Part shown: piece after piece, positions 1-60,705 of the stretch
How the letters are laid out: each line of letters opens with the position of its first letter
How positions within the stretch are numbered: the first letter of the stretch is position 1
Source of the DNA: Escherichia coli
GTDB taxonomy: Bacteria; Pseudomonadota; Gammaproteobacteria; Enterobacterales; Enterobacteriaceae
Strand: one strand, 5' to 3'
Assembly: GCF_044324785.1 (NCBI RefSeq)
Contig: NZ_CP172127.1
Length of the DNA: 64,000 nucleotides
The notes under the pieces: generated by a model
Told to the model about the DNA's origin: nothing
Seen by the model: the letters and a program-made list of their open reading frames with translations, nothing else
Databases searched by the model: none
Translations under genes and position numbers: made by a program

Positions 1-78
1 CCGAAGAATGCTCCGGGATGTTTATCCACGCCCGGTCGTGCTACCTTTTATGTCCTCACAACAAAAAAGGATATTTTC

Positions 79-297
79 ATGTCAGAGATAGCCGAACTTA
101 AAGAAGAATTAGCTAAAGTTAGAGCTGAATTACATACCCACAAGGCATTGCTCTTAACCATTCTTCGTGATCTTCCTCCTCAAAAAGATAAATTTCTCTT
201 GAGAATTGGAGCGTCCGTTAACGATCTGAACCGCCCAGATATTCAGGAGTTAGGCACACTCATTCAATTTTTGCGGTTGCTAAATAACCGCAAATAG
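79..297 (+). CDS. hypothetical small protein (72 aa)
   Basis: ORF only; weak RBS; convergent and overlapping with 260..634; no recognisable motif. Confidence 0.3.
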   Translation: MSEIAELKEELAKVRAELHTHKALLLTILRDLPPQKDKFLLRIGASVNDLNRPDIQELGTLIQFLRLLNNRK

Positions 298-634
298 CAT
301 CAACATTAAGCCGGGTGCCGTCATGTTTATTGGCGGCATCAGTAGCTATTTGTAATATTTTTCTGACGTCATCAATACTTGTTCCCCGGGTTGTTTCGCA
401 CAGACTTTTGTCAATTGCGCAGAAAACTTCAAAAACTCCCGTAGCCAATTTTTCCCGTTCATCTGCTTTCAGAGTGATGACCGGAGAATATAGCGTAGTA
501 AAGGCTTCTCTGATTTCCTGCGCCATAGCTACTGGTGATTTTGTTTCGCAAAGCTGGGTGCTGAACTGCATCCGGTCACTCAGTAGATGAGCGGCGATCA
601 CCTGAATTTGTTGCGGTAAAGATTTAAATTCCAT
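260..634 (-). CDS. hypothetical early-leftward phage protein (about 125 aa from internal ATG)
   Basis: AGGAG RBS precedes internal Met (MEFKSLPQQ...); sits leftward of the repressor as in lambdoid PL operons. Confidence 0.5.
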   Translation of the reverse strand: MEFKSLPQQIQVIAAHLLSDRMQFSTQLCETKSPVAMAQEIREAFTTLYSPVITLKADEREKLATGVFEVFCAIDKSLCETTRGTSIDDVRKILQIATDAANKHDGTRLNVDAICGYLATAKIE

Positions 635-741
635 CGTTTGGTACTCCTGACACACTGGTCTGGGTTGCCCTTATCGCCGGGTAGCGGAACGTGTTTCTGA
701 ACAACTGCCGCTGGGTAAGCGTTGTTGATGAAAGCGACTTT

Positions 742-790
742 ACAATTTGTATTTGTAATGGTCAATGTATTTTTAAAAAATAATTTGTAG
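742..790. promoter_or_regulatory. putative left operator cluster (repeated TTGTAA / ATTTGTA half-sites)
   Basis: acaatttgtatttgtaat and aatttgtag repeats left of the repressor gene, same half-site as the right operator region. Confidence 0.35.
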
Positions 791-884: not shown

Positions 885-1313
885 CTATTTTGTCTGGTTT
901 TTGGCTTCAAGTAGTTCTTTTAGCAGTAGATCGAAGTGCTCTCTTTTTTCTTTTAGCTCATTGATTAGTTTATTTTTTTCGCTCTCAGGCAGTCCTCTGA
1001 ATAGTTGCAGTAGAGCCTGTTCTTGTGGGGTTAGTTCTTGATTGTAATTACCGGGGTGTAGCGTGGATTCATCCAAATATTCTCCTTCATTCATGAAGAA
1101 AAAATGAACAGGGTATCCGGTCACTTTTGCTAGCTTGTCTAATTTATCTTTTCTTGGCGTTACCCCATTACACCATGCCTGAACTGATTGAGCTGTAACC
1201 CCAATATGGCGAGCTAACTCAGATTGAGACCAGCCTAAGTCTTTTAGAATCCGTTGTAGTCGGCTAGCAAAAGCCATGTTTTTCGTTTTTGTGTTCATAC
1301 CGTAAGGATACAA
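885..1313 (-). CDS. phage repressor, XRE-family HTH (CI-like, short form without S24 peptidase domain)
   Basis: HTH segment SQSELARHIGVTAQSVQAWCNG; divergent from a Cro-like gene; true start probably internal Met (1298 or 1277), possibly leaderless. Confidence 0.7.
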   Translation of the reverse strand: MYPYGMNTKTKNMAFASRLQRILKDLGWSQSELARHIGVTAQSVQAWCNGVTPRKDKLDKLAKVTGYPVHFFFMNEGEYLDESTLHPGNYNQELTPQEQALLQLFRGLPESEKNKLINELKEKREHFDLLLKELLEAKNQTK

Positions 1314-1318
1314 GGTTT

Positions 1319-1376
1319 AATTGTAGGGAGCATTGCAAATATAATTTGTAATTACAGTTATGATTTGTAATGATGG
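1319..1376. promoter_or_regulatory. putative right operator / divergent promoter region
   Basis: near-palindrome ttgtaattacag plus ttgcaat and atttgtaat repeats between divergent repressor and cro-like genes. Confidence 0.45.
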
Positions 1377-1396: not shown

Positions 1397-1627
1397 ATGG
1401 ATAAACAACTGCAAGACAAAATTCTTTCCGTAATGAGTCAATCAGAGTTAGGTCGGCGATTAGGGAAAAAACCACAAACTGTGAGCCTCTGGTTCAAAGG
1501 ACGGGTTCCCGGTGAAGAGGTTTTGCGCACATCTGAAGCTCTTGAATGGCGCGTGACCCCTCATGATCTTAGACCGGATCTTTACCCAAACCCAGATGAC
1601 AGCTTGCCTAAAACGGAAGCAGCTTAA
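1397..1627 (+). CDS. Cro/YdaS-like HTH regulator
   Basis: AGGAG RBS then ATG at 1397; MDKQLQDKILSVMSQSELGRRLGKKPQTVSLWFKG resembles YdaS/Cro family; first rightward gene. Confidence 0.65.
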   Translation: MDKQLQDKILSVMSQSELGRRLGKKPQTVSLWFKGRVPGEEVLRTSEALEWRVTPHDLRPDLYPNPDDSLPKTEAA

Positions 1628-1685: not shown

Positions 1686-2162
1686 ATGGAAAACCCAGAG
1701 GAATTACAAAAAGAGATTTTGACCTGGGCGGCAAGGGCAGGGCAGGAACTCGTCACGATTGAAATCTGCCGGGCCTGGTTCAGTCAGGGACGCAATGATG
1801 AGTTGAGACTACATGAATTTGAGGACGCGGACGGCAACGTGGACTGGAGAGCCATCAACAACAATCGGCAGAAAATCTTTCGCTGGTTACGTGGCGAGAC
1901 AACGGCGGCGCGCCGAAAAACTCAGGTGCTGGCCAGTGTGATGAAAGCCGTGCTACCCGCAGAACGGCGTGCGCGTCTGGAGTCGCCGGGCGATCCTGTT
2001 TTGCTGGCAACGCTGGCGGCAAAAGAAGGGGTGGAAGCGATTAACGCTGTACATCTCCACTTCGCGCCAGAGATAACTATTCAGGAAATTGACGAAGCAA
2101 TAGCGGCGCTGGTAGCGACGCGAGGGGCAGTGATAAGCACTGCGCAAGGCCATCATGCATGA
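1686..2162 (+). CDS. YdaT-family (CII-like) regulator
   Basis: follows cro-like gene as in Rac ydaS-ydaT; family assignment by recollection of the sequence pattern. Confidence 0.5.
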   Translation: MENPEELQKEILTWAARAGQELVTIEICRAWFSQGRNDELRLHEFEDADGNVDWRAINNNRQKIFRWLRGETTAARRKTQVLASVMKAVLPAERRARLESPGDPVLLATLAAKEGVEAINAVHLHFAPEITIQEIDEAIAALVATRGAVISTAQGHHA

Positions 2163-2163
2163 G

Positions 2164-2204
2164 CGCCTGACCAGCGTTTAACTTATACCGAGGAAAGACC
2201 GATG
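2164..2204 (+). repeat. conserved ~40-bp intergenic motif, copy 1 (cgcctgaccagcgt..accgaggaaagacc.atg)
   Basis: near-identical to 4599..4636; each copy lies between a stop codon and the next ATG. Confidence 0.55.
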
Positions 2205-2426
2205 TTAAGACATATTGACCGCATTACCTGGCGTAACGGCTGGCACCTGAATGGACGCCCGGCACATGTTGCAGAGATCCGCCCCATATTCGATGGCCGC
2301 GTCGCAGCTGCACGTTCTGTATGGGAAAAGTACGAAGAAGAAAAAGCGAAACTGCGTGAGCAAAATCTCTCTGGCGCTGCCTATGAGGCTGGCTGTCGCG
2401 TTCTCTCAGAGGCTTTGGGCATATGA
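2202..2426 (+). CDS. hypothetical protein (74 aa)
   Basis: ORF preceded by GAGGAAAG RBS inside the conserved motif. Confidence 0.4.
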   Translation: MLRHIDRITWRNGWHLNGRPAHVAEIRPIFDGRVAAARSVWEKYEEEKAKLREQNLSGAAYEAGCRVLSEALGI

Positions 2427-3190
2427 ACATCCTCCCGTTACTTGATAGACCCATAGCCTTCCAGAGAAGTTTTATCCGTCTTGAAATTGGCGTGACTGCC
2501 GCATTGTTTCTGTCGCAGTTGACGTACTGGACAAACAGAACAACTGACGACGGCTGGGTGTATAAAACCCAGGATGAGTGGGAAGAGGAAACAGGGCTTT
2601 CACGATACGAGCAGGAGGGCGCCCGCAAAAAACTACGTGGTCTCGGCGTCTTGCTGGAACGTAAACAGGGCTTGCCTGCCAGGCTGTACTACAAAATCGA
2701 TAATGATGTGTTGTGCCAGCTACTTACGTCCGCATACAAGGATGCGGAAAAACCACATACAGGTGAGGGGAAAACCACCAGGCCTGTACGTGGAAAACCA
2801 ACAAACATTCTTACAGAGAATACAACAGAGATTACTACAGAGATTATTACTGATGGTGAATCGGCTGACGCCGACACCCAACAACCTGCCGACCAGAGAA
2901 TAAATTATCAGGTGATACTCGATACCTATCACGAGATTTTGCCAGAGATGCCACCAGTGAAAATCCTCACTGACGGCAGAAAAAAACACCTTCGCACTTT
3001 CTGGAAAAAATTCAATTTCAATGAGTCCCGTTGGCGGGCCTATCTGGAATTTATCGGTGGCAATTGTCGCTGGATGCTGGAGGACAGGCCAAATGGCAGG
3101 GGAGGATTCTGGCGGCGTAAAAATCTTGATTATCTGATTACCGAACGCTGCTACGTTTCGGTTAAGGAAGAACGCGCAAATGATAAATAA
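2423..3190 (+). CDS. phage replication initiation / replisome organizer protein
   Basis: position immediately upstream of and overlapping DnaB-like helicase; N-terminal region resembles replication organizer proteins. Confidence 0.5.
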   Translation: MNILPLLDRPIAFQRSFIRLEIGVTAALFLSQLTYWTNRTTDDGWVYKTQDEWEEETGLSRYEQEGARKKLRGLGVLLERKQGLPARLYYKIDNDVLCQLLTSAYKDAEKPHTGEGKTTRPVRGKPTNILTENTTEITTEIITDGESADADTQQPADQRINYQVILDTYHEILPEMPPVKILTDGRKKHLRTFWKKFNFNESRWRAYLEFIGGNCRWMLEDRPNGRGGFWRRKNLDYLITERCYVSVKEERANDK

Positions 3191-5998: not shown

Positions 5999-6220
5999 AT
6001 GTTTGGCGATAAACTGGAGTTACCACGGAACGGGCGGATAGTGCTCTATATTTCAGATTACAAAGTAACCAGGGCTGAGGTGTTGGAACCGGAAAAACAT
6101 CTGGTCACGTTACCGGACATTATTGAGTTGTATAAGCGGGTCGGATATGTGGACTTGCATCGCGATGATGTTCCCGTTGAGTGTATGGAATGTGAACACC
6201 GGAGGTTTGAAGTTGATTGA
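5999..6220 (+). CDS. hypothetical protein (73 aa)
   Basis: ORF with GGAGG RBS. Confidence 0.4.
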   Translation: MFGDKLELPRNGRIVLYISDYKVTRAEVLEPEKHLVTLPDIIELYKRVGYVDLHRDDVPVECMECEHRRFEVD

Positions 6221-6312
6221 ATTGACTTAGAAAAAGCCCGGGGCTATAGTTTCCGCGCAGCCGCAAAATCGGTTGCCGGGATTGGCGTCCCGGATATCTA
6301 AGTGACGCATAG

Positions 6313-6331
6313 CCGCGTTAGCGGTTTTTTT
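6313..6331 (+). terminator. putative intrinsic terminator
   Basis: ccgcgttagcgg hairpin followed by a T7 run. Confidence 0.45.
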
Positions 6332-6444
6332 ATGTGTTAGGCACGGCCACATTCGCATTATGGTGGGCTGTGTGGGGGCTTCTGCGGAAGCGCCGGGTTC
6401 ACTTAGCCGGTTACGCCAACCCTGCACAGTTCACCACCAGATGA

Positions 6445-7137
6445 TTGGCGTCGCTGGTGGTGATGAAAAAAACACTAAGTGAGGCCACTGCGATGACAAT
6501 CCAAATATCTGCGGAATCCCTTTCTCCGCTACATCATAACCAACTTCCCGTCATCACTACTGAATTGCTTGCCAGTTTGTATGGCACGGAAGTAAATGGT
6601 ATCCAGCAAAACTTCAAGCGCAACATCGCCAGATTTGTCGTAGGAAAGCATTTTTTTAAGCTGGAAGGTAATGAATTACGCGACTTCAAAAACAGACTGA
6701 CAGATAGTCAGTCAGTTGCTAAACATACCCGATCCCTCATTCTCTGGACAGAACGCGGCGCAGCTCGCCATGCCAAAATGCTGGAAACAGAACAGGCCTG
6801 GGAAGTTTTCGAAAAGCTGGAAGATTGTTATTTTAGCCAGCGTCCAGAGAGGCGGAGTACAACTACCGATGACCGTACTCCCTTACGTGATGCCGTTAAT
6901 ATGCTGGTCGGTAAGAAAGGCATGATGTATCCCGATGCCTACACCATGATTCATCAACGCTTCGCCGTCTCTCACATAGAACAACTGTCACAGACGCAAA
7001 TGTTAGAGGCGATTGAATACATCCACTGCCTGCTACTCGATGAAAATCAACCAACCATTCCAGATCACCACTATCAAAAATGGAAAAGTGACCAGAATGC
7101 GCCATGTTGCCAAAGGCGAACATCTGATGACCTTTGA
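6445..7137 (+). CDS. antirepressor-like protein with ORF6N-type N-terminal domain
   Basis: ELLASLYGTEVNGIQQNFKRNIARFVVGKHFFKLEGNELRDF pattern; C-terminal 30 aa look unnatural, possible frameshift into 7013..7270. Confidence 0.5.
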   Translation: MASLVVMKKTLSEATAMTIQISAESLSPLHHNQLPVITTELLASLYGTEVNGIQQNFKRNIARFVVGKHFFKLEGNELRDFKNRLTDSQSVAKHTRSLILWTERGAARHAKMLETEQAWEVFEKLEDCYFSQRPERRSTTTDDRTPLRDAVNMLVGKKGMMYPDAYTMIHQRFAVSHIEQLSQTQMLEAIEYIHCLLLDENQPTIPDHHYQKWKSDQNAPCCQRRTSDDL

Positions 7138-7270
7138 CGCTTTCAAAGAGATCGCTGAGCGGGCAGGGTATCTGGTGATCCACAGCGACAATCTGCGAAG
7201 TATGACACTGGATAAATTGATGGTAATGGGGAAAAAGTCTGCTGTATCCGTTGCTGATTCAGCATTTTGA
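7013..7270 (+). CDS. possible C-terminal continuation of antirepressor in +1 frame, or separate small gene
   Basis: protein-like ORF overlapping the 3' end of 6445..7137 in another frame. Confidence 0.3.
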   Translation: MNTSTACYSMKINQPFQITTIKNGKVTRMRHVAKGEHLMTFDAFKEIAERAGYLVIHSDNLRSMTLDKLMVMGKKSAVSVADSAF

Positions 7271-7447: not shown

Positions 7448-8371
7448 TTATTGGTTTCTGAGGAAAGCGATTCTTGAAAGGGTCATTTGCGTCTGGCAGT
7501 CGACCATTTTCTTGACTTCAGCATCTGTTCCCTGCATTGAAACTTTACCGCACATAGCATCCTTAGTTTTGATCCACTGACGCTGAGAAGGCAGCAAATC
7601 TTTTTTCTTCGCCGGGGTTAACTTGCTCCAGACGGTACTCAAATCAGAGTCGGCATTCGCAAATGCCATTCGGGACTGATCAAGGCTGTCAGCTTTTTGT
7701 GGCTGAAGTTGTGCCTGTCTCTCTATTTGCTTCTCCGCCTCATACTTAGCCTGTTCCTGCGCCCTGAGTTGCACCTGTTGTTCCGCTTCAATTTGGCTCT
7801 GTTGGGCATCCTTAGCCTGCTGGATTTTCTGCTGCTCAACGATCGGGTTGATAATAGAAAGTGATGTCAGTAAAGCGGCGCCCACTGATATCGGATTATC
7901 AGAAGAGGTTTTTACAAAAACGTTTTTCTGATCGTCGGTCGCCTGCACGGTGTAGGTGATACGTTTGGAAAAGGCGTTTGCGTTGTTCTCCAAAAACAGG
8001 CTTTCCATTTGCTTGTCGAGATTACGATTAAAATTCTTTCTGTAATCATCAGAAAGCTGGACGTATTCGTTCGCAGGTAGAGTCATCGTCACGGTCCCTT
8101 CACAAGTTTTCATTGTGCTGCCCGTGTCACTTGATGTTGTGGAGATTTCAGAGATGGCTAGTTTGATCTTGTCCAATGTGCTTCGTTTGGTCTGATTAGT
8201 GACATCAGGGTATTTATCGACCTGTTCAGAGAGTCCTTCATAAGCAGATTTTTTTAATAAATCCATAAGCGCTGACTGGGTTATTTCCGAAGAACAACCG
8301 ATCACATCTTTTTTGTTATCACAGCCTGTAAGGGCAATGGCGAGTAAGAGTACTGAGTATTTTAATCTCAT
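7448..8371 (-). CDS. lipoprotein with C-terminal DUF1311 (LprI-like) domain
   Basis: lipobox LTGC after signal peptide; Gln-rich coiled coil; C-terminal QRQWIKTKDAMCG...DCQTQMTLSRIAFL pattern. Confidence 0.55.
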   Translation of the reverse strand: MRLKYSVLLLAIALTGCDNKKDVIGCSSEITQSALMDLLKKSAYEGLSEQVDKYPDVTNQTKRSTLDKIKLAISEISTTSSDTGSTMKTCEGTVTMTLPANEYVQLSDDYRKNFNRNLDKQMESLFLENNANAFSKRITYTVQATDDQKNVFVKTSSDNPISVGAALLTSLSIINPIVEQQKIQQAKDAQQSQIEAEQQVQLRAQEQAKYEAEKQIERQAQLQPQKADSLDQSRMAFANADSDLSTVWSKLTPAKKKDLLPSQRQWIKTKDAMCGKVSMQGTDAEVKKMVDCQTQMTLSRIAFLRNQ

Positions 8372-9398: not shown

Positions 9399-10064
9399 AT
9401 GAAAGCCGACAACTTAAGAATTATAGAGAATGGCAAATATGTTTTCGATATGTTCTTGGATACTGGTGAATTTTACTATACAAGTCATGCCTTTGACACG
9501 AGAGAAGATGCAAAAAGCTGGATGGAAGAATGGCAGATTTGGGCAAATAATGTATCGAGTGGGAAAGTAAGTAGTATTTATTATATTTTACAAGTGCCTG
9601 ATACTTGGGCCGGTTCTTCAGATAAAAATAACCCTTACTCGGGACTTTATGTGAAAATAGGGCGTTCCAATAATGTGCTAAAAAGGTTGTCTAACCTGCA
9701 GACAGGTGCATTTGGTCAATTAATATTACACGCTTTGGAACCTGGTGGTTCAGAAAAAGAAAACTATCTTCATGAAAAATTTAGCAACGAAAGACGTCAA
9801 GGTGAATGGTTTGTTTGTACTAAGGAACTTACCAAGCATATATTTACAACATGGTTTAAAAACAAAATGCTCCCACCAGAACATCAAATAAAAATAATGC
9901 AGCTCGCAGAAAGAATAGGTATTTATTCGCATGTTCATACACTAATGGGGGGGAAGCCAGACTTAGTAAACCCATCTATTAGTGAACCTTGGGAATGCGA
10001 AAAATATGTTTTGGTTGATATGATTTATAGCTCTTTAGCAAAGCAAGTTAATCATAAAAAATAA
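9399..10064 (+). CDS. T5orf172 (MUG113, GIY-YIG-like) domain protein
   Basis: YVKIGRSNNVLKRLSNLQTG ... LHEKFSNERRQGEWF matches the T5orf172 signature; unknown flanking regions. Confidence 0.6.
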   Translation: MKADNLRIIENGKYVFDMFLDTGEFYYTSHAFDTREDAKSWMEEWQIWANNVSSGKVSSIYYILQVPDTWAGSSDKNNPYSGLYVKIGRSNNVLKRLSNLQTGAFGQLILHALEPGGSEKENYLHEKFSNERRQGEWFVCTKELTKHIFTTWFKNKMLPPEHQIKIMQLAERIGIYSHVHTLMGGKPDLVNPSISEPWECEKYVLVDMIYSSLAKQVNHKK

Positions 10065-10898: not shown

Positions 10899-11504
10899 TT
10901 ACTTGCGTTTAAAAAGGTATTTTGTCACGACCAGCACGAGGCCGAATACCTCTGTCAAAGTACCGCCCATGTACAACTGGAGCGTTAAGTCTTTAAATAC
11001 AAGCCATTCAGCACCAGTGGCAAAAAATACACCATTCATTATCAAAAGCTGGCAAGCAAGGATAATAAGGAACCATTTGCCATAGCGTTTTTTTAGATCG
11101 ATTTCAGCTTCAAAATCTTTGTTGTTGAGTTGTTTGCGCTCATGCTCAGTATCAAGTGAATTCACCTGTTTCACAGATGTGAACTCGGTCAAGATTTTAC
11201 TCTCAGTACGGGTGACTTGTTGAGAGGGGGTAGGAATTGGAATTCTTTTGATTGACGCAGCTACAGCCATTTTGCGAGCTTCGGCAGCTCTTTTTCTGGC
11301 TATTCCGTGAATACGGGCAGACGGTTTTTTTGGAGCATGCGAAACCTTTGTCTGAGGTGAAGTTTCGTCAGGAGACTGAACCGGAGTTTCATCCTCCTCC
11401 GGCTCAACCTCTTCTGCTAACTGACGGTGTAGGTTGAGGGAATCCTTCAGTCGGCGTGCAACTTCCTGTTTGAAACGGCTGTTAAAATCGTCATCCGATG
11501 GCAT
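10899..11504 (-). CDS. membrane-anchored protein (charged N-terminal region, two C-terminal TM helices), partner of ImmA-like peptidase
   Basis: start 9 nt after peptidase stop, RBS inside peptidase 3' end; hydrophobic segments WFLIILACQLLIMNGVFFATGA and LVLVVTKYLF. Confidence 0.55.
   Translation of the reverse strand: MPSDDDFNSRFKQEVARRLKDSLNLHRQLAEEVEPEEDETPVQSPDETSPQTKVSHAPKKPSARIHGIARKRAAEARKMAVAASIKRIPIPTPSQQVTRTESKILTEFTSVKQVNSLDTEHERKQLNNKDFEAEIDLKKRYGKWFLIILACQLLIMNGVFFATGAEWLVFKDLTLQLYMGGTLTEVFGLVLVVTKYLFKRK
10901..10978. repeat. direct repeat copy B (~78 bp), coding for the C-terminus of 10899..11504
   Basis: pairs with 7301..7377. Confidence 0.8.
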
Positions 11505-11513
11505 TCTAAAGCG

Positions 11514-12002
11514 TTACCCCAACCTCAAGTTCTTTAAACGATAAGTCATCGCATCGTCAGATACGCCAAAATGATGCGCCATTATATAACTTGGTTGGCC
11601 GTCAGCGTGCAGTTTTCTGACCTCATCTACCGGCATCAGAAGTTCTGCTGCGAACTTGTTCGCAAAAATTTCATCAGGATGCGTTCCGGCGCTTGCGGTT
11701 TCGCCACGTAAATCAACGTACTCATATTCATCGCTATGCGATGCTTGCCGGGCGATGTAATGCCCCAACTCATGCCCACATGAAAAACGTTGACGAACTT
11801 TGTTGTCATCACTGTTTAGAAAGATCGCTGGATCTTGATCTTTTTGTTTAATCAGTGCGCCAGAAACTTTCCCAGGAAGATCGGTAATAAAAACATCTAA
11901 TCCCATGTCGTGAGCAATTTTCGCTGGATCAACAGGGAAACCACGCCCGCACCAGAACGTGTCCAGCACTCGCCGGGCGTGCTCTCTTGGGTTGGTAGCC
12001 AT
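11514..12002 (-). CDS. ImmA/IrrE-family zinc metallopeptidase (DUF955)
   Basis: HELGHY zinc-binding motif and downstream EIFANKFAAELLMP segment. Confidence 0.7.
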   Translation of the reverse strand: MATNPREHARRVLDTFWCGRGFPVDPAKIAHDMGLDVFITDLPGKVSGALIKQKDQDPAIFLNSDDNKVRQRFSCGHELGHYIARQASHSDEYEYVDLRGETASAGTHPDEIFANKFAAELLMPVDEVRKLHADGQPSYIMAHHFGVSDDAMTYRLKNLRLG

Positions 12003-12075
12003 AGCTCCTCCAGTTACTGCATTACGATTATTGGTCGAAATATAGACAACATGTTCCGTACCACATTCCTGTAAA

Positions 12076-12094
12076 AGTGCAAATTCTGCACTTC
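12076..12094. promoter_or_regulatory. palindromic operator-like site upstream of the peptidase operon
   Basis: aagtgca-aattc-tgcactt, perfect 7-bp arms, about 75-90 bp upstream of the peptidase start. Confidence 0.4.
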
Positions 12095-12435
12095 TGGTAC
12101 GATATTAACTGTTAGTAGTAAAGTCTTCCAGATAAATCACTTTAAAATCGTGTGAATTGCTTGCTTTTTACGCTGCATTGTGGATGGCTCAATGTTTCCA
12201 GTAAAAACATACATGATAATCATGACATTAGTGGTTTTTTAGGCGTCCATCTGTTTCTTAAAAAAATGGATGCCACAAGCGCCCGGATGAGAACAGGAAG
12301 GGAAGGCTATTACATGTGTGATTTATTACATCTGTAAAAAAATACAGATCTAACCTGATCTTTTCATTGAAGTTTTTCTTGGTCCTGGATAGGATCTGGA
12401 GGTTGCGAAGATTTTAGAGTCGCATCAAAGGGAAA

Positions 12436-12461
12436 GCCCTGACAGCGCCAACTGTCAGGGC
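12436..12461. other. perfect 10-bp stem hairpin (gccctgacag / ctgtcagggc) in a 567-bp non-coding stretch
   Basis: inverted repeat with 6-nt loop; T-rich flank on minus strand. Confidence 0.5.
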
Positions 12462-12569
12462 CATACAAAAACATCGGTTAATGCTTTCGTTGAGATCTCG
12501 GTTTGGGAGATTACCTCAACCGGGATCCCGTGTAAAGCATTCATTGCCGAAAATGATATAGGTCAATGA

Positions 12570-12966: not shown

Positions 12967-13608
12967 ATGAAAACCTTCTATGAGGGCTGGCCTGAAACTT
13001 TCGTTAGCCGGTTAGATATGTTACGGGCGTTGGATGATCGCGGTTCGACCCGGAGGCTCTATCTTGAGCGGACCGGAGCAATATTTGGCGCTCTGGCAGA
13101 AGAGATACGTACAGCCGTTGCCGGGCATCCTGAAACTGACGCGAGTGAACTTGATATCGGGCCGCTATATCGCTATTACAAACGTGGAGAAAAGGGGGAT
13201 CCGCTGGCTGACTTACTTATTAAATTGGCTCCACCAACCTGTGAACGGGTTCGTATATCTCCTGAAGTGTACACAATCCCGTATCTGTTTTTTGCACTGT
13301 TGATAGCGCAAGGCGCTGACAACGATGCCCGAGATTTTTTCAATATGATGATGCGACCGTTGATCATCGCCTACCGCTTCAAACAACTGGCGCGCTACCT
13401 TGGCACGAAGGGCGGAGGACGACCACAGCACAGATTAAAAAGTGAAGCCATTGAACTGGCTGATCGTTTTTTTACTGAAAACCCGACTGCGCCATTATCG
13501 CGTGGTGTGCAATACATATCCGGTATTTTTGTGGCGAAATACTCCGATCCACCTGCAGCCTCGACGATTAGAAAATGGTTAATTTCAATTTACAGGAGTG
13601 ATAAATAA
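12967..13608 (+). CDS. hypothetical protein (about 213 aa from internal ATG with GAGGT RBS)
   Basis: ORF 12931..13608; better start at MKTFYEGW; no recognisable domain. Confidence 0.45.
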   Translation: MKTFYEGWPETFVSRLDMLRALDDRGSTRRLYLERTGAIFGALAEEIRTAVAGHPETDASELDIGPLYRYYKRGEKGDPLADLLIKLAPPTCERVRISPEVYTIPYLFFALLIAQGADNDARDFFNMMMRPLIIAYRFKQLARYLGTKGGGRPQHRLKSEAIELADRFFTENPTAPLSRGVQYISGIFVAKYSDPPAASTIRKWLISIYRSDK

Positions 13609-13759
13609 TGACCATAAACGGTTTAATCCCCTATAAAACCGTTTAATAAAATTCACGACGTGAATATAATTGTTCATTATTCCCTCATTGTATCTGGCGT
13701 TATGACAAATGCCATAAAATACTGTATAAATGTACAGGCGGTGGCGTTAGGGGGAAGAC

Positions 13760-13939
13760 ATGAATATTCAAGAATCTATAGGCGAACTACCGGAAACATG
13801 CCGGGCTGTTATCAAGCGTAAGGACGGACACATCGTTGGTGTGCGTGTTCTGACTGATGATGAACGGATTGCCAGCCTGATGGCGTTTCTCGAGTTGGCA
13901 GAAATAGCTGGATATACTATTACACCCCCTGACGCGTAA
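13760..13939 (+). CDS. hypothetical small protein (59 aa), below ORF-track threshold
   Basis: GGGGGAAGA RBS then ATG; translation MNIQESIGELPETCRAVIKRKDGHIVGVRVL... Confidence 0.35.
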   Translation: MNIQESIGELPETCRAVIKRKDGHIVGVRVLTDDERIASLMAFLELAEIAGYTITPPDA

Positions 13940-14016
13940 AACACGGTATAATATCGGTGCTGGATTGAACACCCGGCACCATTTTCTGAACACTGCCGCG
14001 CCACCTGGAGTTAACC

Positions 14017-14613
14017 ATGGCGCAGCATTCATTTATCAGGGTATCCGGCGGTTCGCTAATACCCGCGACACCAGACACGCAACGCTGGTTGACTGAACGA
14101 GTCAAACCAGGTGCTGTTGTGTATGCAGATTTCAAACAGGCGCGTAATCCCGCGTTTCATCGTAAATTTTTCTCACTTCTCAACCTGGGCTTTGATTACT
14201 GGCATCTCTCCGGAGGGGCTATTTCTCCTGCAGAGCGCGAACTGGTTCACGGCTACGTTAAGTTACTGGCTTATTACGGTGGGCATGGTGATGTCATGGC
14301 TGAGCTGGCTGATCAGTATCTTCTCGATGAGTCGGAAAAGCGCGCGGGGAATATCAGTGCGGTTAAGTCGTTCGAGGCGTTTCGCGCCTGGGCGACTATG
14401 GAAGCTGGATTTTATGACGTTCATCAGATGCCAGACGGCAGTGTGATGCGCGTACCTCGTTCAATCTCGTTTGCTGCGATGGACGATCTTGAGTTCGGTC
14501 AACTGTATTCAGCCGTTTTAGATGTGCTGTGGAATTATATTTTGTTCCGCACGTTTGCCTCTCAGGAGGCCGCTGAAAATGCCGCCGCGCAGCTGCTGGA
14601 TTACACATCATGA
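14017..14613 (+). CDS. DUF1367-family phage protein (YbcN-like, nin-region type)
   Basis: position upstream of YbcO-like and Q-like genes; sequence pattern recalled from DLP12 ybcN homologues. Confidence 0.5.
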   Translation: MAQHSFIRVSGGSLIPATPDTQRWLTERVKPGAVVYADFKQARNPAFHRKFFSLLNLGFDYWHLSGGAISPAERELVHGYVKLLAYYGGHGDVMAELADQYLLDESEKRAGNISAVKSFEAFRAWATMEAGFYDVHQMPDGSVMRVPRSISFAAMDDLEFGQLYSAVLDVLWNYILFRTFASQEAAENAAAQLLDYTS

Positions 14614-15671: not shown

Positions 15672-15935
15672 GAATCAGGAAAAATCATGTCTGAACCTCT
15701 AACCGCTGGCGTTGCTGCTGGCTCGGCGGGGGTGACGTTTGCTGCGTTATTTCCTGAGGCAACACCTGCAGTGATGATCTGTGCGCTGGCAGGCGCAGCT
15801 CTCTATGTGTTGTCGTCCGGGCAGCATCGATTCTGGAAGCAGGTTAGACTGGCCCCCTGAATCTCCAGACAACCAATATCACTTAAATAAGTGATAGTCT
15901 TAATACTAGTTTTTAGACTAGTCATTGGAGAGCAG

Positions 15936-16301
15936 ATGATTGATGTCTTAGGACCGGAGAAACGCAGACGGCGTACTACACAGGAAAAGATCGCTATTGT
16001 TCAGCAGAGTTTTGAACCGGGAATGACGGTCTCCCTTGTTGCCCGGCAACACGGTGTGGCAGCCAGCCAGTTATTTCTCTGGCGCAAGCAATACCAGGAG
16101 GGAAGTCTTACTGCTGTGGCCGCAGGAGAGCAGGTCGTTCCTGCCTCTGAACTTGCTGCTGCCATGAAGCAGATTAAAGAACTCCAGCGCCTGCTCGGCA
16201 AAAAAACGATGGAAAATGAACTCCTTAAAGAAGCCGTTGAATACGGGCGTGCAAAAAAGTGGATAGCGCACGCGCCCTTATTGCCCGGGGATGGGGAGTA
16301 A
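15936..16301 (+). CDS. insC: IS2 transposase OrfA (InsC)
   Basis: [53 protein letters not shown]. Confidence 0.9.
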
Positions 16302-17164
16302 GCTTAGTCAGCCGTTGTCTCCGGGTGTCGCGTGCGCAGTTGCACGTAATTCTCAGACGAACCGATGACTGGAAAGATGGTCGCCGCAGCCGTCACTCAG
16401 ATGATACGGATGTGCTTCTCCGTATACACCATGTTATCGGAGAGCTGCCCACGTATGGTTATCGTCGGGTATGGGCGCTGCTTCGCAGACAGGCCGAACT
16501 TGATGGTATGCCTGCGATCAATGCCAAACGTGTTTACCGGATCATGCGCCAGAATGCGCTGTTGCTTGAGCGAAAAACCGCTGTACCGCCATCGAAACGG
16601 GCACATACTGGCAAAGTGGCCGTGAAAGAAAGCAATCAACGATGGTGCTCTGACGGGTTCGAGTTCCGCTGTGATAACGGAGAAAAACTGCGAGTCACGT
16701 TCGCGCTGGACTGCTGTGACCGTGAGGCACTGCACTGGGCAGTCACTACGGGCGGCTTCGACAGTGAAACAGTACAGGACGTAATGCTGGGAGCGGTGGA
16801 ACGCCGCTTCGGCAACGAGCTTCCGGCGTCTCCAGTAGAGTGGCTGACGGATAATGGTTCATGCTACCGGGCTAATGAAACACGGCAGTTTGCCCGGATG
16901 TTGGGGCTTGAACCGAAGAACACGGCGGTGCGGAGTCCGGAGAGTAACGGCATAGCAGAGAGCTTCGTGAAAACGATAAAGCGTGACTACATCAGTATCA
17001 TGCCTAAACCAGACGGGTTAACGGCAGCAAAGAACCTTGCAGAGGCGTTCGAGCATTATAACGAATGGCATCCGCATAGTGCACTGGGTTATCGCTCGCC
17101 ACGGGAATATCTGCGGCAGCAGGCCAGTAATGGGTTAAGTGATAACAGGTGTCTGGAAATATAG
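16259..17164 (+). CDS. insD: IS2 transposase OrfB (InsD)
   Basis: 301-aa DDE transposase overlapping insC in -1 frame. Confidence 0.9.
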
Positions 17165-17405
17165 GGGCAAATCCACAGGTTATTTTCGCACTCATTTCGT
17201 TTGTTGGCGGTGTGTATTGCGCTGAGACAGCATCAGCCATCATTACCGGTATTCTGAACGCGGTGCTGAGTCACCTGAACCCTCCCGTAACAGTAAAAGT
17301 CTCTCCCGCCATTGGTGCACTGGTTGCATCAGTAATCAGCGTTACATCACTGTTGCGGATCATGTCACAAGCTCGTTTATGGAAATCAGATAAGGGGATG
17401 AAATA

Positions 17406-18730: not shown

Positions 18731-19228
18731 ATGAAATCATTAACCCTCTTCAATCAACCAATCCGCGTCGGGGATGATGGCATGATCTGCCTCACCGACA
18801 TGTGGAAAGCCAGCGGCAAAAGTGACGCTGAATCGCCGTACCACTATCTGCGAAACAAGCAGACCAAAGAGTTCCTTGTCGAGCTGGAGAAAAACCACGA
18901 ATCTGTGGTTTTCACTGCCCGCGGCGTACACGGCGGAACCTATGGCGGGAAGTTTGTTGCTTACGATTATGCGGCTTGGTTAAACCCAGGGTTCAAGTAT
19001 GCAGCCTATAAAGTACTCGATGACTACTTCACCGGAGAGCTTCGGCATCGTAATAGCTTAAGTGCGCAGCTCAACATGAAGTGTTATGAGTTTGACCAGA
19101 AGAAAGACATGGCGAGCTTCTGTGGGCAAGGACTCGCGGCATGGCGTTATACAAAGCCTGTGCTGATCGCTGAGATGAACACCTTGGCAAACCAACTGCA
19201 GATTACGCTCCCTGGACTTCCTGGATGA
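18731..19228 (+). CDS. KilA-N domain protein
   Basis: N-terminal FNQPIRVGDDGMICLTDMWKASGKSDAESPYHYLRNKQTKEFL. Confidence 0.55.
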   Translation: MKSLTLFNQPIRVGDDGMICLTDMWKASGKSDAESPYHYLRNKQTKEFLVELEKNHESVVFTARGVHGGTYGGKFVAYDYAAWLNPGFKYAAYKVLDDYFTGELRHRNSLSAQLNMKCYEFDQKKDMASFCGQGLAAWRYTKPVLIAEMNTLANQLQITLPGLPG

Positions 19229-51881: not shown

Positions 51882-52447
51882 TATGTATTCCCTTGTGATT
51901 ATAATCTTCATGAATATATCAATAAGTGCCGTTATCCAAAAAAAAGCACATTTGGATACTATTCTATGAAGTTCATTTTATTTTAAGGATTACATGTAAC
52001 AAATGTATTTAAAAGATTTCAAAATGTTTCTAATCTATTTAATATAATTCAGAATTATGAATTCTAGATATAAATATTCATGATAATTATGAATATATAT
52101 CAATATGTTATGAGTTGATTGGAAAGATAGGAAGTATCAATGATTGCGGCGCTAAACGGCTGATGTGATCACGCGCACATTAATGAAGGCATAAAAAAAA
52201 GCCGGCATCATGCCGGCCCAAAAAATATAAACAAGACGATAAAAGGCTAATAACGGGGTTATCATGACACAGAAATCAAAAAAGGTATAATTGAATTCGC
52301 TGCTAATATATTGTTTAGGTGAATTAATAAAACCATTACCATAGATAATAATAAATCTTCATTGCTGTTTTTCCGGTAATTATTGCCGTTGCGCAAAAAT
52401 TATCTATTTGTTCAAAAAATGATTGAGTCTTGACTGGCTCATCCAAT

Positions 52448-60618: not shown

Positions 60619-60705
60619 AACACATCAGATTTCCTGGTGTAACGAATTTTTTAAGTGCTTCTTGCTTAAGCAAGTTTCATCCCGACCCCCTCAGGGTCGG
60701 GATTT
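60619..60705 (+). ncRNA. dsrA: small regulatory RNA DsrA
   Basis: aacacatcagatttcctggtgtaacgaattttttaagtgcttcttgcttaagcaagtttcatcccgaccccctcagggtcgggattt matches DsrA including its terminator hairpin. Confidence 0.9.

Follow-up and report, generated by a model that had tools for sequence, protein, structure and literature searches.

How can a prophage be induced if its repressor lacks a domain for self-cleavage? This question is raised by a short repressor gene in a 64,000-nt stretch of Escherichia coli DNA (the window). We think it probable (roughly 60%) that this gene encodes the CI equivalent of a lambdoid-type prophage, that the repressor belongs to the DicA/GfoR/GtgR family, and that the prophage is induced by a LexA-controlled, Rem-like antirepressor of 59 amino acids.

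The repressor and its gene

885..1298 (- strand): lysogeny repressor, DicA/GfoR/GtgR family; probably 137 aa from ATG 1298, with an alternative ATG at 1277

The open reading frame that a mechanical search reports (885..1313, - strand) begins with TTG and encodes 142 aa. This agrees with an earlier note on this DNA, which gave at most 142 aa with an XRE-type helix-turn-helix (HTH). TTG 1313 is unlikely to be the true start because it falls within an operator-like site (1308..1326). In the PGAP annotation, an identical protein starts at ATG 1277 (130 aa), and NCBI also has a 137-aa form (P0001) that starts at ATG 1298. We favor ATG 1298 because a Salmonella homolog that is 87% identical reads MNTKNKNLAFAS and does not have the second methionine. 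Judged by this comparison, the repressor is probably translated from ATG 1298 as a protein of 137 aa. Reading the sequence directly, we found no Shine-Dalgarno motif upstream of ATG 1298 or ATG 1277; the lack of a good ribosome binding site at the internal methionines had been noticed before. By eye, there are two candidate -10 elements: TACAAT (1325-1320), which would give a leader of ~15 nt, and TATCCT (at -12 to -7 relative to ATG 1298), which would give a leaderless mRNA. Both lack a good -35 element, and neither is among the sites listed by our promoter scan.

The only Pfam domains in the repressor are XRE-type HTH families (HTH_3, residues 19–70, E = 1.9e-12). Peptidase_S24 had no match at E ≤ 0.01, and the sequence contains no Ala-Gly or Cys-Gly dipeptide. 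Pfam, NCBIfam, PHROGs, AlphaFold2, and Foldseek identified no second domain beyond the HTH. The AlphaFold2 model comprises a five-helix HTH (residues 3–68), a disordered, low-confidence linker (69–90), and two further helices (91–101 and 105–135), and the Foldseek matches to this model are confined to the HTH. The N-terminal domain is similar to that of the 434 repressor (E = 4.5e-5). Because there is neither an S24 domain nor an Ala-Gly site, RecA-stimulated self-cleavage of the repressor is not expected.

Next, what kind of repressor is it? The NCBIfam model for DicA aligns with it over the full length (131 of 135 positions; E = 3e-20), but because the score of 72 bits is under the cut-off of 101, we consider the repressor to be a relative of DicA and not an ortholog. 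It is 31% identical to DicA from E. coli K-12 from end to end (residues 1–129 of 130; E = 1e-15), and an end-to-end alignment with GtgR from Gifsy-2 has 33% identity. A C-terminal motif, LLxLFxxLPExE, is common to 42 relatives of 123–187 aa (nearly all of them 123–153 aa). With 130–137 aa, an N-terminal XRE/434-like HTH, and no LexA/CI-type autocleavage module, the repressor resembles the other members of this family, which are about 125–155 aa. Since it aligns from end to end with both DicA and GtgR, including the C-terminal LLxLFxxLPExE helices, we place it in the non-cleavable Gifsy/DicA family. For GfoR, GfhR, and GtgR of the Gifsy phages, non-cleavage and antirepressor-mediated induction were shown experimentally (Lemire, Figueroa-Bossi, and Bossi 2011, PMC3121763), and antirepressor-mediated induction was also shown experimentally for DicA and Rem of the Qin prophage of E. 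coli K-12 (Ragunathan et al. 2023, PMC10448788). By homology, then, there is nothing unusual about the repressor: it falls in a known class of short, antirepressor-controlled prophage repressors. The earlier note had argued that the protein has no room for an S24 domain and is unlikely to undergo RecA-stimulated self-cleavage; the domain search and the experiments on the family (PMC3121763) bear out both statements.

Operators and immunity region

740..790: OL, two operator-like palindromes (740-758, perfect; 772-790, with 3 mismatches)
1308..1370: OR, three 19-bp operator-like palindromes (1308-1326, 1333-1351, and 1352-1370) between the repressor and the cro-like gene
1397..1627 (+ strand): cro-like gene, YdaS family (Pfam YdaS_toxin, E = 7.7e-9; phrog_35)
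1686..2162 (+ strand): CII-like activator, YdaT family (Pfam YdaT_toxin, E = 2e-15; phrog_163, CII-like, E = 5e-42)

TTGTAA-type repeats had been described on both sides of the repressor gene, and we found that palindromes occur there, at OL and OR. With up to one mismatch, TTACAA-N7-TTGTAA occurs at just three sites in the 64 kb (740-758, 1333-1351, and 1352-1370), versus 0.19 expected, and none of 100 shuffles reached three; this pattern was derived post hoc from the sites themselves. Weaker copies are present at 1308-1326 and 772-790. From reading the sequence, we infer a rightward promoter, PR, that overlaps OR (TTGTAA 1346-1351, 17 nt, TGt-AATGAT 1366-1374). The OR palindromes also overlap the region just 5' of the repressor start. 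OL overlaps a leftward promoter-like site (TTGACC-17-TAAAGT; 765..737, - strand) that is directed into the gene at 634..260. The cro-like gene points away from the repressor gene, and a good Shine-Dalgarno sequence (AAGGAG) precedes it. A Megablast comparison with a phage collection gave no match to the immunity region.

A predicted LexA box upstream of a Rem-like gene

5999..6220 (+ strand): second Rem-like ORF, 73 aa (phrog_340, E = 3.5e-21), conserved in relatives
13702..13739 (+ strand): candidate SOS promoter (ATGACA 13702-13707, 17 nt, TATAAA 13725-13730), with an overlapping LexA box
13760..13939 (+ strand): Rem-like small protein of 59 aa (phrog_340, E = 1.6e-20), the proposed LexA-controlled antirepressor
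14017..14613 (+ strand): DUF1367/NinB-like gene, homolog of STM1020 from Gifsy-2 (56% identity, E = 2e-81; phrog_319)

The best predicted LexA box in the window is TACTGTATAAATGTACAGGC, at 13720-13739. Because the number of CTGT-N8-ACAG sites in the window (2 observed versus 0.65 expected) is not significant by itself, we scored the 20-mer instead. No other 20-mer in the window has so few mismatches to the LexA consensus (4), and 0.02 sites at this level are expected per window. Every close relative with upstream DNA has kept the box, even one with a protein of just 75% identity, and the box persists where its flanks have diverged. We picked the promoter hexamers there by eye, and a stricter promoter-scan rule did not list them. 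The site lies about 9 kb beyond the helicase gene, which is outside the immunity region and downstream of the replication genes.

The LexA box ends 20 nt before the ATG of the 59-aa ORF, whose product is labeled only as “hypothetical” everywhere. Rem matches phrog_340 (E = 4.4e-21) over the same region of the profile as the 59-aa protein does, and GfoA-like proteins match it as well (E = 1.2e-9). BLASTP gave no alignment between the 59-aa protein and Rem; the link between them rests on the common PHROG profile and a hand-checked alignment. The AlphaFold2 model of the 59-aa protein is a beta-hairpin plus a helix (pLDDT 84.7). We found no solved structures by sequence and no significant fold match.

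The DUF1367/NinB-like gene is directly downstream of the 59-aa ORF, and its homolog STM1020, the “irsA homologue,” comes after gftA in Gifsy-2. The order here is thus LexA box, 59-aa ORF, and STM1020 homolog, while in Gifsy-2 it is LexA box, dinI, gftA, and irsA homolog (PMC3121763); there is no dinI homolog as the first gene of the operon here. Rem, to which the small protein is related, is a tested antirepressor of DicA (PMC10448788). We found no LexA box near rem in K-12, and Rem-like genes are not always SOS-controlled. The second Rem-like ORF (5999..6220) closes the early rightward gene string, and as no LexA box precedes it, derepression is presumably needed for its expression. Overall, the likeliest induction switch is the 59-aa ORF, which the earlier note had overlooked. 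The specificity of antirepressors is broad and poorly predictable (PMC3121763), and the repressor could in fact be partnered by the product of 5999..6220 or by an antirepressor that another prophage supplies.

Distribution and related loci

The immunity region is present in 448 of 5426 complete E. coli genomes (about 8%), the LexA/Rem-like segment in 443, and an M78 peptidase gene of the same prophage in 446. Because the whole prophage backbone travels together, these counts cannot separate the candidates for the effector. Wherever an accession is listed for both the immunity region and the LexA/Rem-like segment, the two are about 11–16 kb apart.

We therefore turn to diverged loci from IMG/VR, which we searched with 8 closer repressor sequences as seeds; the repressors at these loci are 38–66% identical. 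Among the 46 loci with at least 9 kb of DNA on the cro side, 27 have a Rem/GfoA-like ORF on the cro strand. Such an ORF is found at 29 of the 70 loci with diverged repressors, nearly always (27 of 29) with a perfect-core LexA box upstream. One locus whose repressor is 66% identical (L045) has the same dinI-less layout as the window. In a third lineage (L016–L033), the Rem-like ORF is 1.2 kb from a DicA-like repressor.

Alternative explanations

6244..6441 (+ strand): RNA leader of the ORF6N gene (a1/b1 targets, 6244-6296; isrK, 6257-6331; C4-type antisense RNA, 6356-6441)
6493..7270 (+ strand): ORF6N antirepressor gene, AnrP type, disrupted (an 11-bp deletion near 7065 shifts the frame)

The earlier note had proposed that induction depends on an ORF6N antirepressor or on an ImmA-like peptidase. 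Induction by antirepression, without self-cleavage, fits our results, but as the effector, the 59-aa Rem-like ORF is a better candidate than either of these. The ORF6N protein might be an inducing antirepressor that is released by an isrK/C4-type RNA switch and not by LexA. Over the N-terminal 116 residues, it shares 67% identity with the AnrP homolog of Gifsy-1 (STM2616); the central region matches a segment of P22 Ant with 54% identity, and the C terminus of its intact homologs is Rem-like (phrog_340, E = 3e-13). On this homology, it is a genuine antirepressor-type gene, as the note had supposed, and an ortholog of AnrP from Gifsy-1. The isrK, C4, and a1/b1 elements directly 5' of the gene, which are all above the Rfam gathering scores, precede STM2616 in Gifsy-1 in the same arrangement, and conservation of the leader among the window, C41, and Gifsy-1 is ~80% (as mean column identity). 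By all appearances, the ORF6N gene is controlled by this isrK/C4-type leader and not by LexA. Furthermore, expression of AnrP induces Gifsy-1 (Hershko-Shalev et al. 2016, PMC4825925), and in the strain used for that study, SL1344, the Gifsy-1 repressor is identical to the short repressor GfhR (PMC3121763). However, relative to C41 and to intact relatives (262–264 aa), the 11-bp deletion removes the last ~70 residues from this copy: frame 1 ends at 7137, which leaves the Rem-like C-terminal domain to another frame, in 7040..7270. Our scan of the window found no LexA box near the ORF6N gene, and because of this, the gene would not explain SOS induction. In the Gifsy phages, it is the small, LexA-controlled antirepressors that were shown to be required for SOS induction (PMC3121763). 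Finally, only 1 of the 70 loci with diverged repressors of the DicA/GfoR/GtgR family has an ORF6N homolog. We consider it unlikely that the ORF6N protein is what induces this prophage.

ImmA cleaves ImmR, IrrE cleaves DdrO, and CapP cleaves CapH. The ImmA/IrrE/CapP-like (M78) peptidase of the prophage (11514..12002, - strand) has an intact HEXXH motif and clear profile matches (Pfam Peptidase_M78, E = 1.4e-17; best PADLOC match capP, E = 1.6e-25). According to its AlphaFold2 model, the repressor has the architecture of the known substrates of such peptidases, which are short XRE repressors with a C-terminal dimerization region (bioRxiv 10.1101/2022.04.27.489752; PMC12828697). Even so, we think it very improbable that the peptidase cuts the repressor between the HTH and the C-terminal helices after DNA damage. 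The peptidase gene lacks the trait that defines such pairs, a neighboring XRE repressor gene that is co-transcribed or divergent, and lies 10 kb from the repressor; its operon partner is a membrane protein (10899..11504), and the 570-bp gap upstream (12003-12569) contains no HTH ORF. Since the peptidase covers only positions 3–151 of the 242 positions in the CapP profile, it does not have the C-terminal GAF sensor part of CapP and IrrE. None of the 70 loci with 38–66%-identical repressors has a homolog of the peptidase within 10 kb, although remote homologs could be missed by this single-sequence phmmer search, which has limited sensitivity. Gifsy repressors of the same family are not cleaved upon induction (PMC3121763). 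A weak LexA-like core (12332-12347) lies 330 bp upstream of the peptidase gene, but by direct reading it is 7 mismatches away from the 20-mer, and just 2 of the fetched loci have it, so we set it aside.

It could also be that the module is a remnant in a decaying prophage, so that the repressor only silences the early genes and no functional induction is left. An IS2 element is inserted in the first holin-like (lysis) gene after Q, and the ORF6N gene is frameshifted; because of these two lesions, this copy of the prophage may no longer complete induction at all. There is also a precedent: DicA and Rem persist in the cryptic prophage Qin without SOS control (PMC10448788). On the other hand, this copy has an intact repressor, intact operators, and an intact cro-like gene, LexA box, and 59-aa ORF, and all of these are 98–99% identical in the best-matching genomes. 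The phage record vB_EcoM-705R4 has an identical 59-aa gene and an identical late region, which argues that the prophage family is not generally dead. Decay of the whole module is, in our judgment, improbable.

A model for induction

We propose that a LexA-controlled antirepressor induces the prophage, as follows. The 434-like N-terminal HTH of the repressor would bind 19-bp palindromes of the type TTACAA-N7-TTGTAA, of which OR has three and OL has two, and the two C-terminal helices would hold a dimer or oligomer together. Once bound, the repressor would shut both the rightward promoter (for the cro-like, cII-like, and replication genes) and the leftward promoter. As the repressor is not expected to cleave itself, induction would proceed by antirepression. 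DNA damage would lead to self-cleavage of the host's LexA, and the promoter at 13702-13739 would open. The 59-aa Rem-like protein would then be made, bind the repressor, and take it off the DNA. The AnrP-type ORF6N antirepressor behind the isrK/C4 RNA switch would be a second input, a route that the prophage family has but that carries a frameshift in this copy. We infer the binding of the repressor to DNA, the binding of LexA to its box, and the interaction of repressor and antirepressor from sequence comparisons.

Placing the repressor in the Gifsy/DicA family predicts that induction depends on the cleavage of LexA and is reversible, instead of requiring the destruction of the repressor, and that antirepressors from co-resident prophages could cross-induce this one. 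It also points to an annotation gap: in 448 of 5426 genomes, the repressor is labeled “helix-turn-helix domain-containing protein” and the probable antirepressor “hypothetical protein.” Conceptually, these results add nothing to the findings of 2011–2023.

This prophage family has three carriers of Rem-like sequence: the free-standing, putatively LexA-controlled gene (13760..13939), the free-standing gene at 5999..6220, and the C-terminal domain of the RNA-switch-controlled ORF6N antirepressor.

In related loci, a Rem-like module is fused to a Rha domain (L068) or, with the central part missing, to an ORF6N domain (L024). A modestly new point is that the module exists as a gene of its own and also at the C terminus of larger antirepressors. 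A speculative reading, which we hold only tentatively, is that the Rem-like fold, in which a beta-hairpin is joined by a helix that ends in AGY, is a portable repressor-binding module that this prophage family carries three times. If so, then “large” antirepressors of the Ant/AnrP type and “small” antirepressors of the Gifsy/Rem type would have one effector domain in common, and three inputs would converge on one short repressor: SOS, an RNA switch, and positive feedback or cross-talk.

Comparison with known systems

The immunity region has the same layout as those of lambda (CI), P22 (C2), and 434: a leftward operator and promoter, the repressor, a rightward operator and promoter, and cro. 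The DNA-binding domain is like that of the 434 repressor, but the repressor here has no S24 C-terminal domain and no Ala-Gly site. With ImmR/ImmA, DdrO/IrrE, and CapH/CapP, the prophage shares a short XRE repressor, a C-terminal oligomerization region, and an M78 peptidase in the same element; it differs from them in that the two genes are apart, the peptidase has no sensor domain, and the phmmer search of 70 loci found no co-occurrence of the pair across the family.

As in the isrK-orf45-anrP locus of Gifsy-1 (PMC4825925) and the immI c4-ant locus of P1 and P7, the RNA leader is directly 5' of the ORF6N gene. The gene exceeds anrP in length, with a central part like that of P22 Ant and a C-terminal part like Rem, and the 11-bp deletion inactivates it. 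It comes after a Rem-like ORF, whereas the anrP locus of Gifsy-1 comes after the Q gene.

Qin (PMC10448788) has a repressor, DicA, that aligns from end to end (31% identity) and a small protein, Rem, in the same PHROG, and in both prophages the rem-like gene is just upstream of the nin/Q region. However, rem in Qin has no LexA box and Qin is not inducible by mitomycin C, whereas the box here is of consensus grade. Also, Rem has 83 aa with an extra internal hairpin segment, versus 59 aa here.

Induction of the Gifsy phages through GfoR, GfhR, and GtgR (PMC3121763) offers many parallels. Their repressors are also short (about 137 aa), with an HTH, C-terminal LPExE helices, and no cleavage site, and a cro-like gene is divergent. 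Their antirepressor genes, like the one proposed here, are outside the immunity region and downstream of the replication genes; a palindrome and then a LexA box precede the gene, and an STM1020-type (irsA-homolog) gene comes after it. The Gifsy antirepressors are GfoA, GfhA, and GftA, which are LexA-controlled; here there is no dinI between the LexA box and the small ORF, and the small protein is of the Rem type (phrog_340), while GftA belongs to phrog_4847 and GfoA-like proteins to phrog_1813. The repressor here is only 33% identical to GtgR, and its operators are different.

The repressor and its operators

The open reading frame that the earlier note reported at 885-1313 is present on the minus strand and encodes 142 amino acids from a TTG start. 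Since an operator-like palindrome (1308-1326) spans this TTG (1313), translation probably starts elsewhere. For the identical protein in E. coli C41, PGAP chose the ATG at 1277 (130 amino acids); a 137-amino-acid form that starts at the ATG at 1298 is also in NCBI (P0001); and a Salmonella homologue that is 87% identical begins with MNTKNKNLAFAS and lacks the second Met. Weighing these three lines of evidence, we favor ATG 1298 as the putative start, for a protein of 137 amino acids. Neither ATG is preceded by a Shine-Dalgarno sequence, which agrees with the claim that the internal Met candidates lack a good ribosome-binding site.

In Pfam, the repressor matches XRE-type helix-turn-helix (HTH) families only (HTH_3, E = 1.9e-12), and there is no match to Peptidase_S24, as had been proposed. 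Nor does its sequence contain Ala-Gly or Cys-Gly. An AlphaFold2 model (42 relatives as input, mean pLDDT of 74.5) has a five-helix domain (residues 3-68), a low-confidence linker (69-90), and two further helices (91-101 and 105-135). When this model was searched with Foldseek, the similarities were to the HTH only (434 repressor and Cro, C.BclI, SinR, the N-terminal domain of CapH, and DdrO). The full-length match to NCBIfam's DicA model (E = 3e-20) scores 72 bits, short of the model's cut-off (101), which makes the repressor a relative of DicA and not an orthologue. It is 31% identical end to end to DicA of K-12 (BLASTP, E = 1e-15) and 33% identical to the Gifsy-2 repressor GtgR (tblastn). 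Among 1.8 billion representative proteins, its full-length relatives have 123-153 amino acids, and their alignment shows conservation of the motif LLxLFxxLPExE at the C-terminus, with a long helix after it. Upon induction, Gifsy repressors remain uncleaved; small antirepressors inactivate them, and DicA and RacR were placed in the same group (Lemire et al., PMC3121763). DicA has an antirepressor, Rem (Ragunathan et al., PMC10448788).

The TTGTAA-type repeats do lie on both sides of the repressor gene, as 19-bp palindromes (TTACAA-N7-TTGTAA). With up to one mismatch, there are three in 64 kb (740-758, 1333-1351, and 1352-1370), all of them flanking the repressor gene; 0.19 are expected and none of 100 shuffles reached three, although the pattern was derived post hoc from these same sites. 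Weaker operator-like palindromes are at 772-790 and 1308-1326, and the two flanking intergenic regions have repeats of 18-24 nt in common. The surrounding features are:

765..737, leftward promoter-like site, overlapping the left palindrome cluster
1346-1374, rightward extended -10 promoter (by eye), overlapping the right palindrome cluster
1397..1627, cro-like gene (YdaS family), right of the repressor
1686..2162, CII-like gene (YdaT family), right of the repressor
also right of the repressor, O-like initiator gene and DnaB-type helicase gene

This is the classical lambdoid arrangement of leftward operator/promoter, repressor, rightward operator/promoter, and cro. Given the homology and the layout, the repressor would be expected to bind these operators. 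The left arm of the window (1..686), which contains the first leftward gene (634..260), is absent from about 450 E. coli prophages that share the immunity region. Their matches begin at 665-687, so there is a mosaic junction directly left of the left operator cluster.

A putative LexA-controlled antirepressor

Two exact copies of the core CTGT-N8-ACAG are in the window, and one of them, TACTGTATAAATGTACAGGC (13720-13739), is the window's only 20-mer with at most four mismatches to the LexA consensus (0.02 expected per window). This putative LexA box overlaps a plausible -10 (ATGACA, 17 nt, TATAAA; assigned by eye). Starting 20 nt past its end is an open reading frame for 59 amino acids (13760..13939) with a good ribosome-binding site. 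The predicted protein belongs to phrog_340 (E = 1.6e-20), as does Rem (E = 4.4e-21, same region of the profile); GfoA-like proteins (similar to a Gifsy antirepressor; phrog_1813) also match phrog_340 (E = 1.2e-9). BLASTP found no pairwise match between the 59-aa protein and Rem, so the link is at the profile level. Their alignment has a common hairpin-helix core with AGY at its end. The AlphaFold2 model of the 59-aa protein is a beta-hairpin and one helix (pLDDT of 84.7), and we found no solved structure that resembles it. The gene that follows (14017..14613) shares 56% identity with STM1020 of Gifsy-2, the "irsA homologue" downstream of gftA; therefore, the unit sits where the LexA operon sits in Gifsy prophages, but dinI is missing. 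From homology and layout, we infer that LexA binds at 13720-13739 and that the 59-aa protein, which is likely the antirepressor, forms a complex with the repressor.

The LexA box is retained in all close IMG/VR relatives whose upstream DNA is covered, including one in which the 59-aa homologue is only 75% identical and the flanks have diverged. We also retrieved 80 loci that encode repressor relatives and scanned them using a profile HMM built from the Rem-like core. Of the 46 loci that have repressors 38-66% identical and at least 9 kb of cro-side DNA, 27 have a Rem/GfoA-like open reading frame on the cro strand. A perfect-core LexA box lies upstream of 27 of the 29 Rem/GfoA-like matches, either 180-320 nt away, a distance that roughly matches the length of dinI, or directly in front of the open frame. 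The second layout is that of L045, a locus whose repressor is 66% identical and where an STM1020-like gene is 45 nt downstream. In a third lineage (loci L016-L033), a DicA-like repressor and a 42%-identical Rem-like open reading frame are 1.2 kb apart. Of 5426 complete E. coli genomes, 448 carry the immunity region, 443 the LexA/Rem-like segment, and 446 the peptidase segment, counts that show only that the backbone travels together.

Two other proposed effectors

The earlier note named an ImmA-like peptidase or the ORF6N protein as the probable effector. The first of these (gene at 11514..12002, minus strand) is an M78 peptidase (Pfam E = 1.4e-17) with a HEXXH motif. Its match to capP, the best in PADLOC, spans only positions 3-151 of 242; the GAF sensor part is therefore missing from the peptidase. 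In known pairs of repressor and peptidase, the genes are adjacent; this gene is 10 kb from the repressor, has no neighboring HTH gene, and has no homologue by single-sequence phmmer in 70 loci with diverged repressors. Common residence in the prophage is all that ties it to the repressor. The next gene encodes a 201-aa membrane protein (phrog_5346), in an operon with the peptidase (10899..12002, minus strand) that may serve in defence or as an accessory module. At 12332..12347, 330 bp upstream of the peptidase, is a weak LexA-like core (CTGTAAAAAAATACAG) that only two fetched relatives share.

Directly upstream of the ORF6N gene (ATG at 6493), Rfam identifies:

6244-6296, a1/b1 targets
6257-6331, isrK
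6356-6441, C4-type antisense RNA

The same elements precede STM2616, the AnrP homologue of Gifsy-1, which is 67% identical to the window's protein over the ORF6N domain. IsrK activates translation of orf45-anrP, and AnrP expression induces Gifsy-1 (Hershko-Shalev et al., PMC4825925). The ORF6N protein thus represents a genuine type of antirepressor for which there is experimental precedent, but LexA does not control it and the window's copy is damaged: relative to C41 (ATTTTTCTTTT), an 11-bp deletion near 7065 (7060..7070) causes a frameshift. Intact homologues have 262-264 amino acids; the central part of this type shares 54% identity with a segment of P22 Ant, and the C-terminus of the intact homologues is Rem-like (phrog_340, E = 3e-13). 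Of the 70 loci with diverged repressors, one has a homologue of the ORF6N protein by the same phmmer search. The leader (6244..6441) is an RNA switch resembling those of P1 immI and Gifsy-1, and a 40-codon open reading frame (6360..6482) that ends 10 nt before the ATG may be the equivalent of orf45.

The Rem-like module occurs three times in this prophage family, as the 59-aa protein, as the 73-aa protein listed first below, and as the C-terminus of the intact ORF6N protein. In other prophages it is fused to further domains, as in the last two entries:

5999..6220, second free-standing Rem-like open reading frame (73 aa; phrog_340, E = 3.5e-21), last in the series of early rightward genes
1921..2538 (-) in L024, a locus from another prophage, Rem-like C-terminal domain fused to an ORF6N domain, with the central part absent
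13536..14102 (+) in L068, also from another prophage, Rem-like C-terminal domain fused to a Phage_pRha domain

The 73-aa open reading frame has no LexA box. Its position suggests that it may be controlled by the phage repressor, like Fels-1 FsoA, and it could provide positive feedback or cross-talk with other prophages. Three copies in the family, with fusions to ORF6N or Rha elsewhere, hint at one effector domain common to small and large antirepressors. This recurrence is the only modestly novel point.

Prophage surroundings and comparison with known systems

After the Q gene there is a 1.33-kb IS2 copy (15847..17175; 96% identical to the K-12 IS2E remnant), which sits within the first holin-like gene, judging from two other loci (L004 and L010), and probably prevents expression of the late or lysis genes. 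Together with the ORF6N frameshift, this suggests that the window's prophage is decaying. An accessory island separates the replication genes from the nin/Q region; it consists of a GIY-YIG/T5orf172-type nuclease gene (9399..10064), several unknown open reading frames, and an LprI-family lipoprotein gene (7448..8371, minus strand). An antirepressor- or regulator-like KilA-N/ORF11CD3 gene (18731..19228) lies between the lysis genes and the terminase. Relatives of the prophage adjoin tRNA-Ser and mtfA. The window contains the host sRNA genes rseX (52194..52283, minus strand) and dsrA (60619..60705, plus strand), so its right third is E. coli chromosome.

Overall, the short repressor and its repeats are real features of the window. 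The proposal of induction without self-cleavage, by antirepression in principle, stands, but the two named effectors are less likely. The system is of the Gifsy/DicA kind, with a Rem-type LexA module that lacks dinI.
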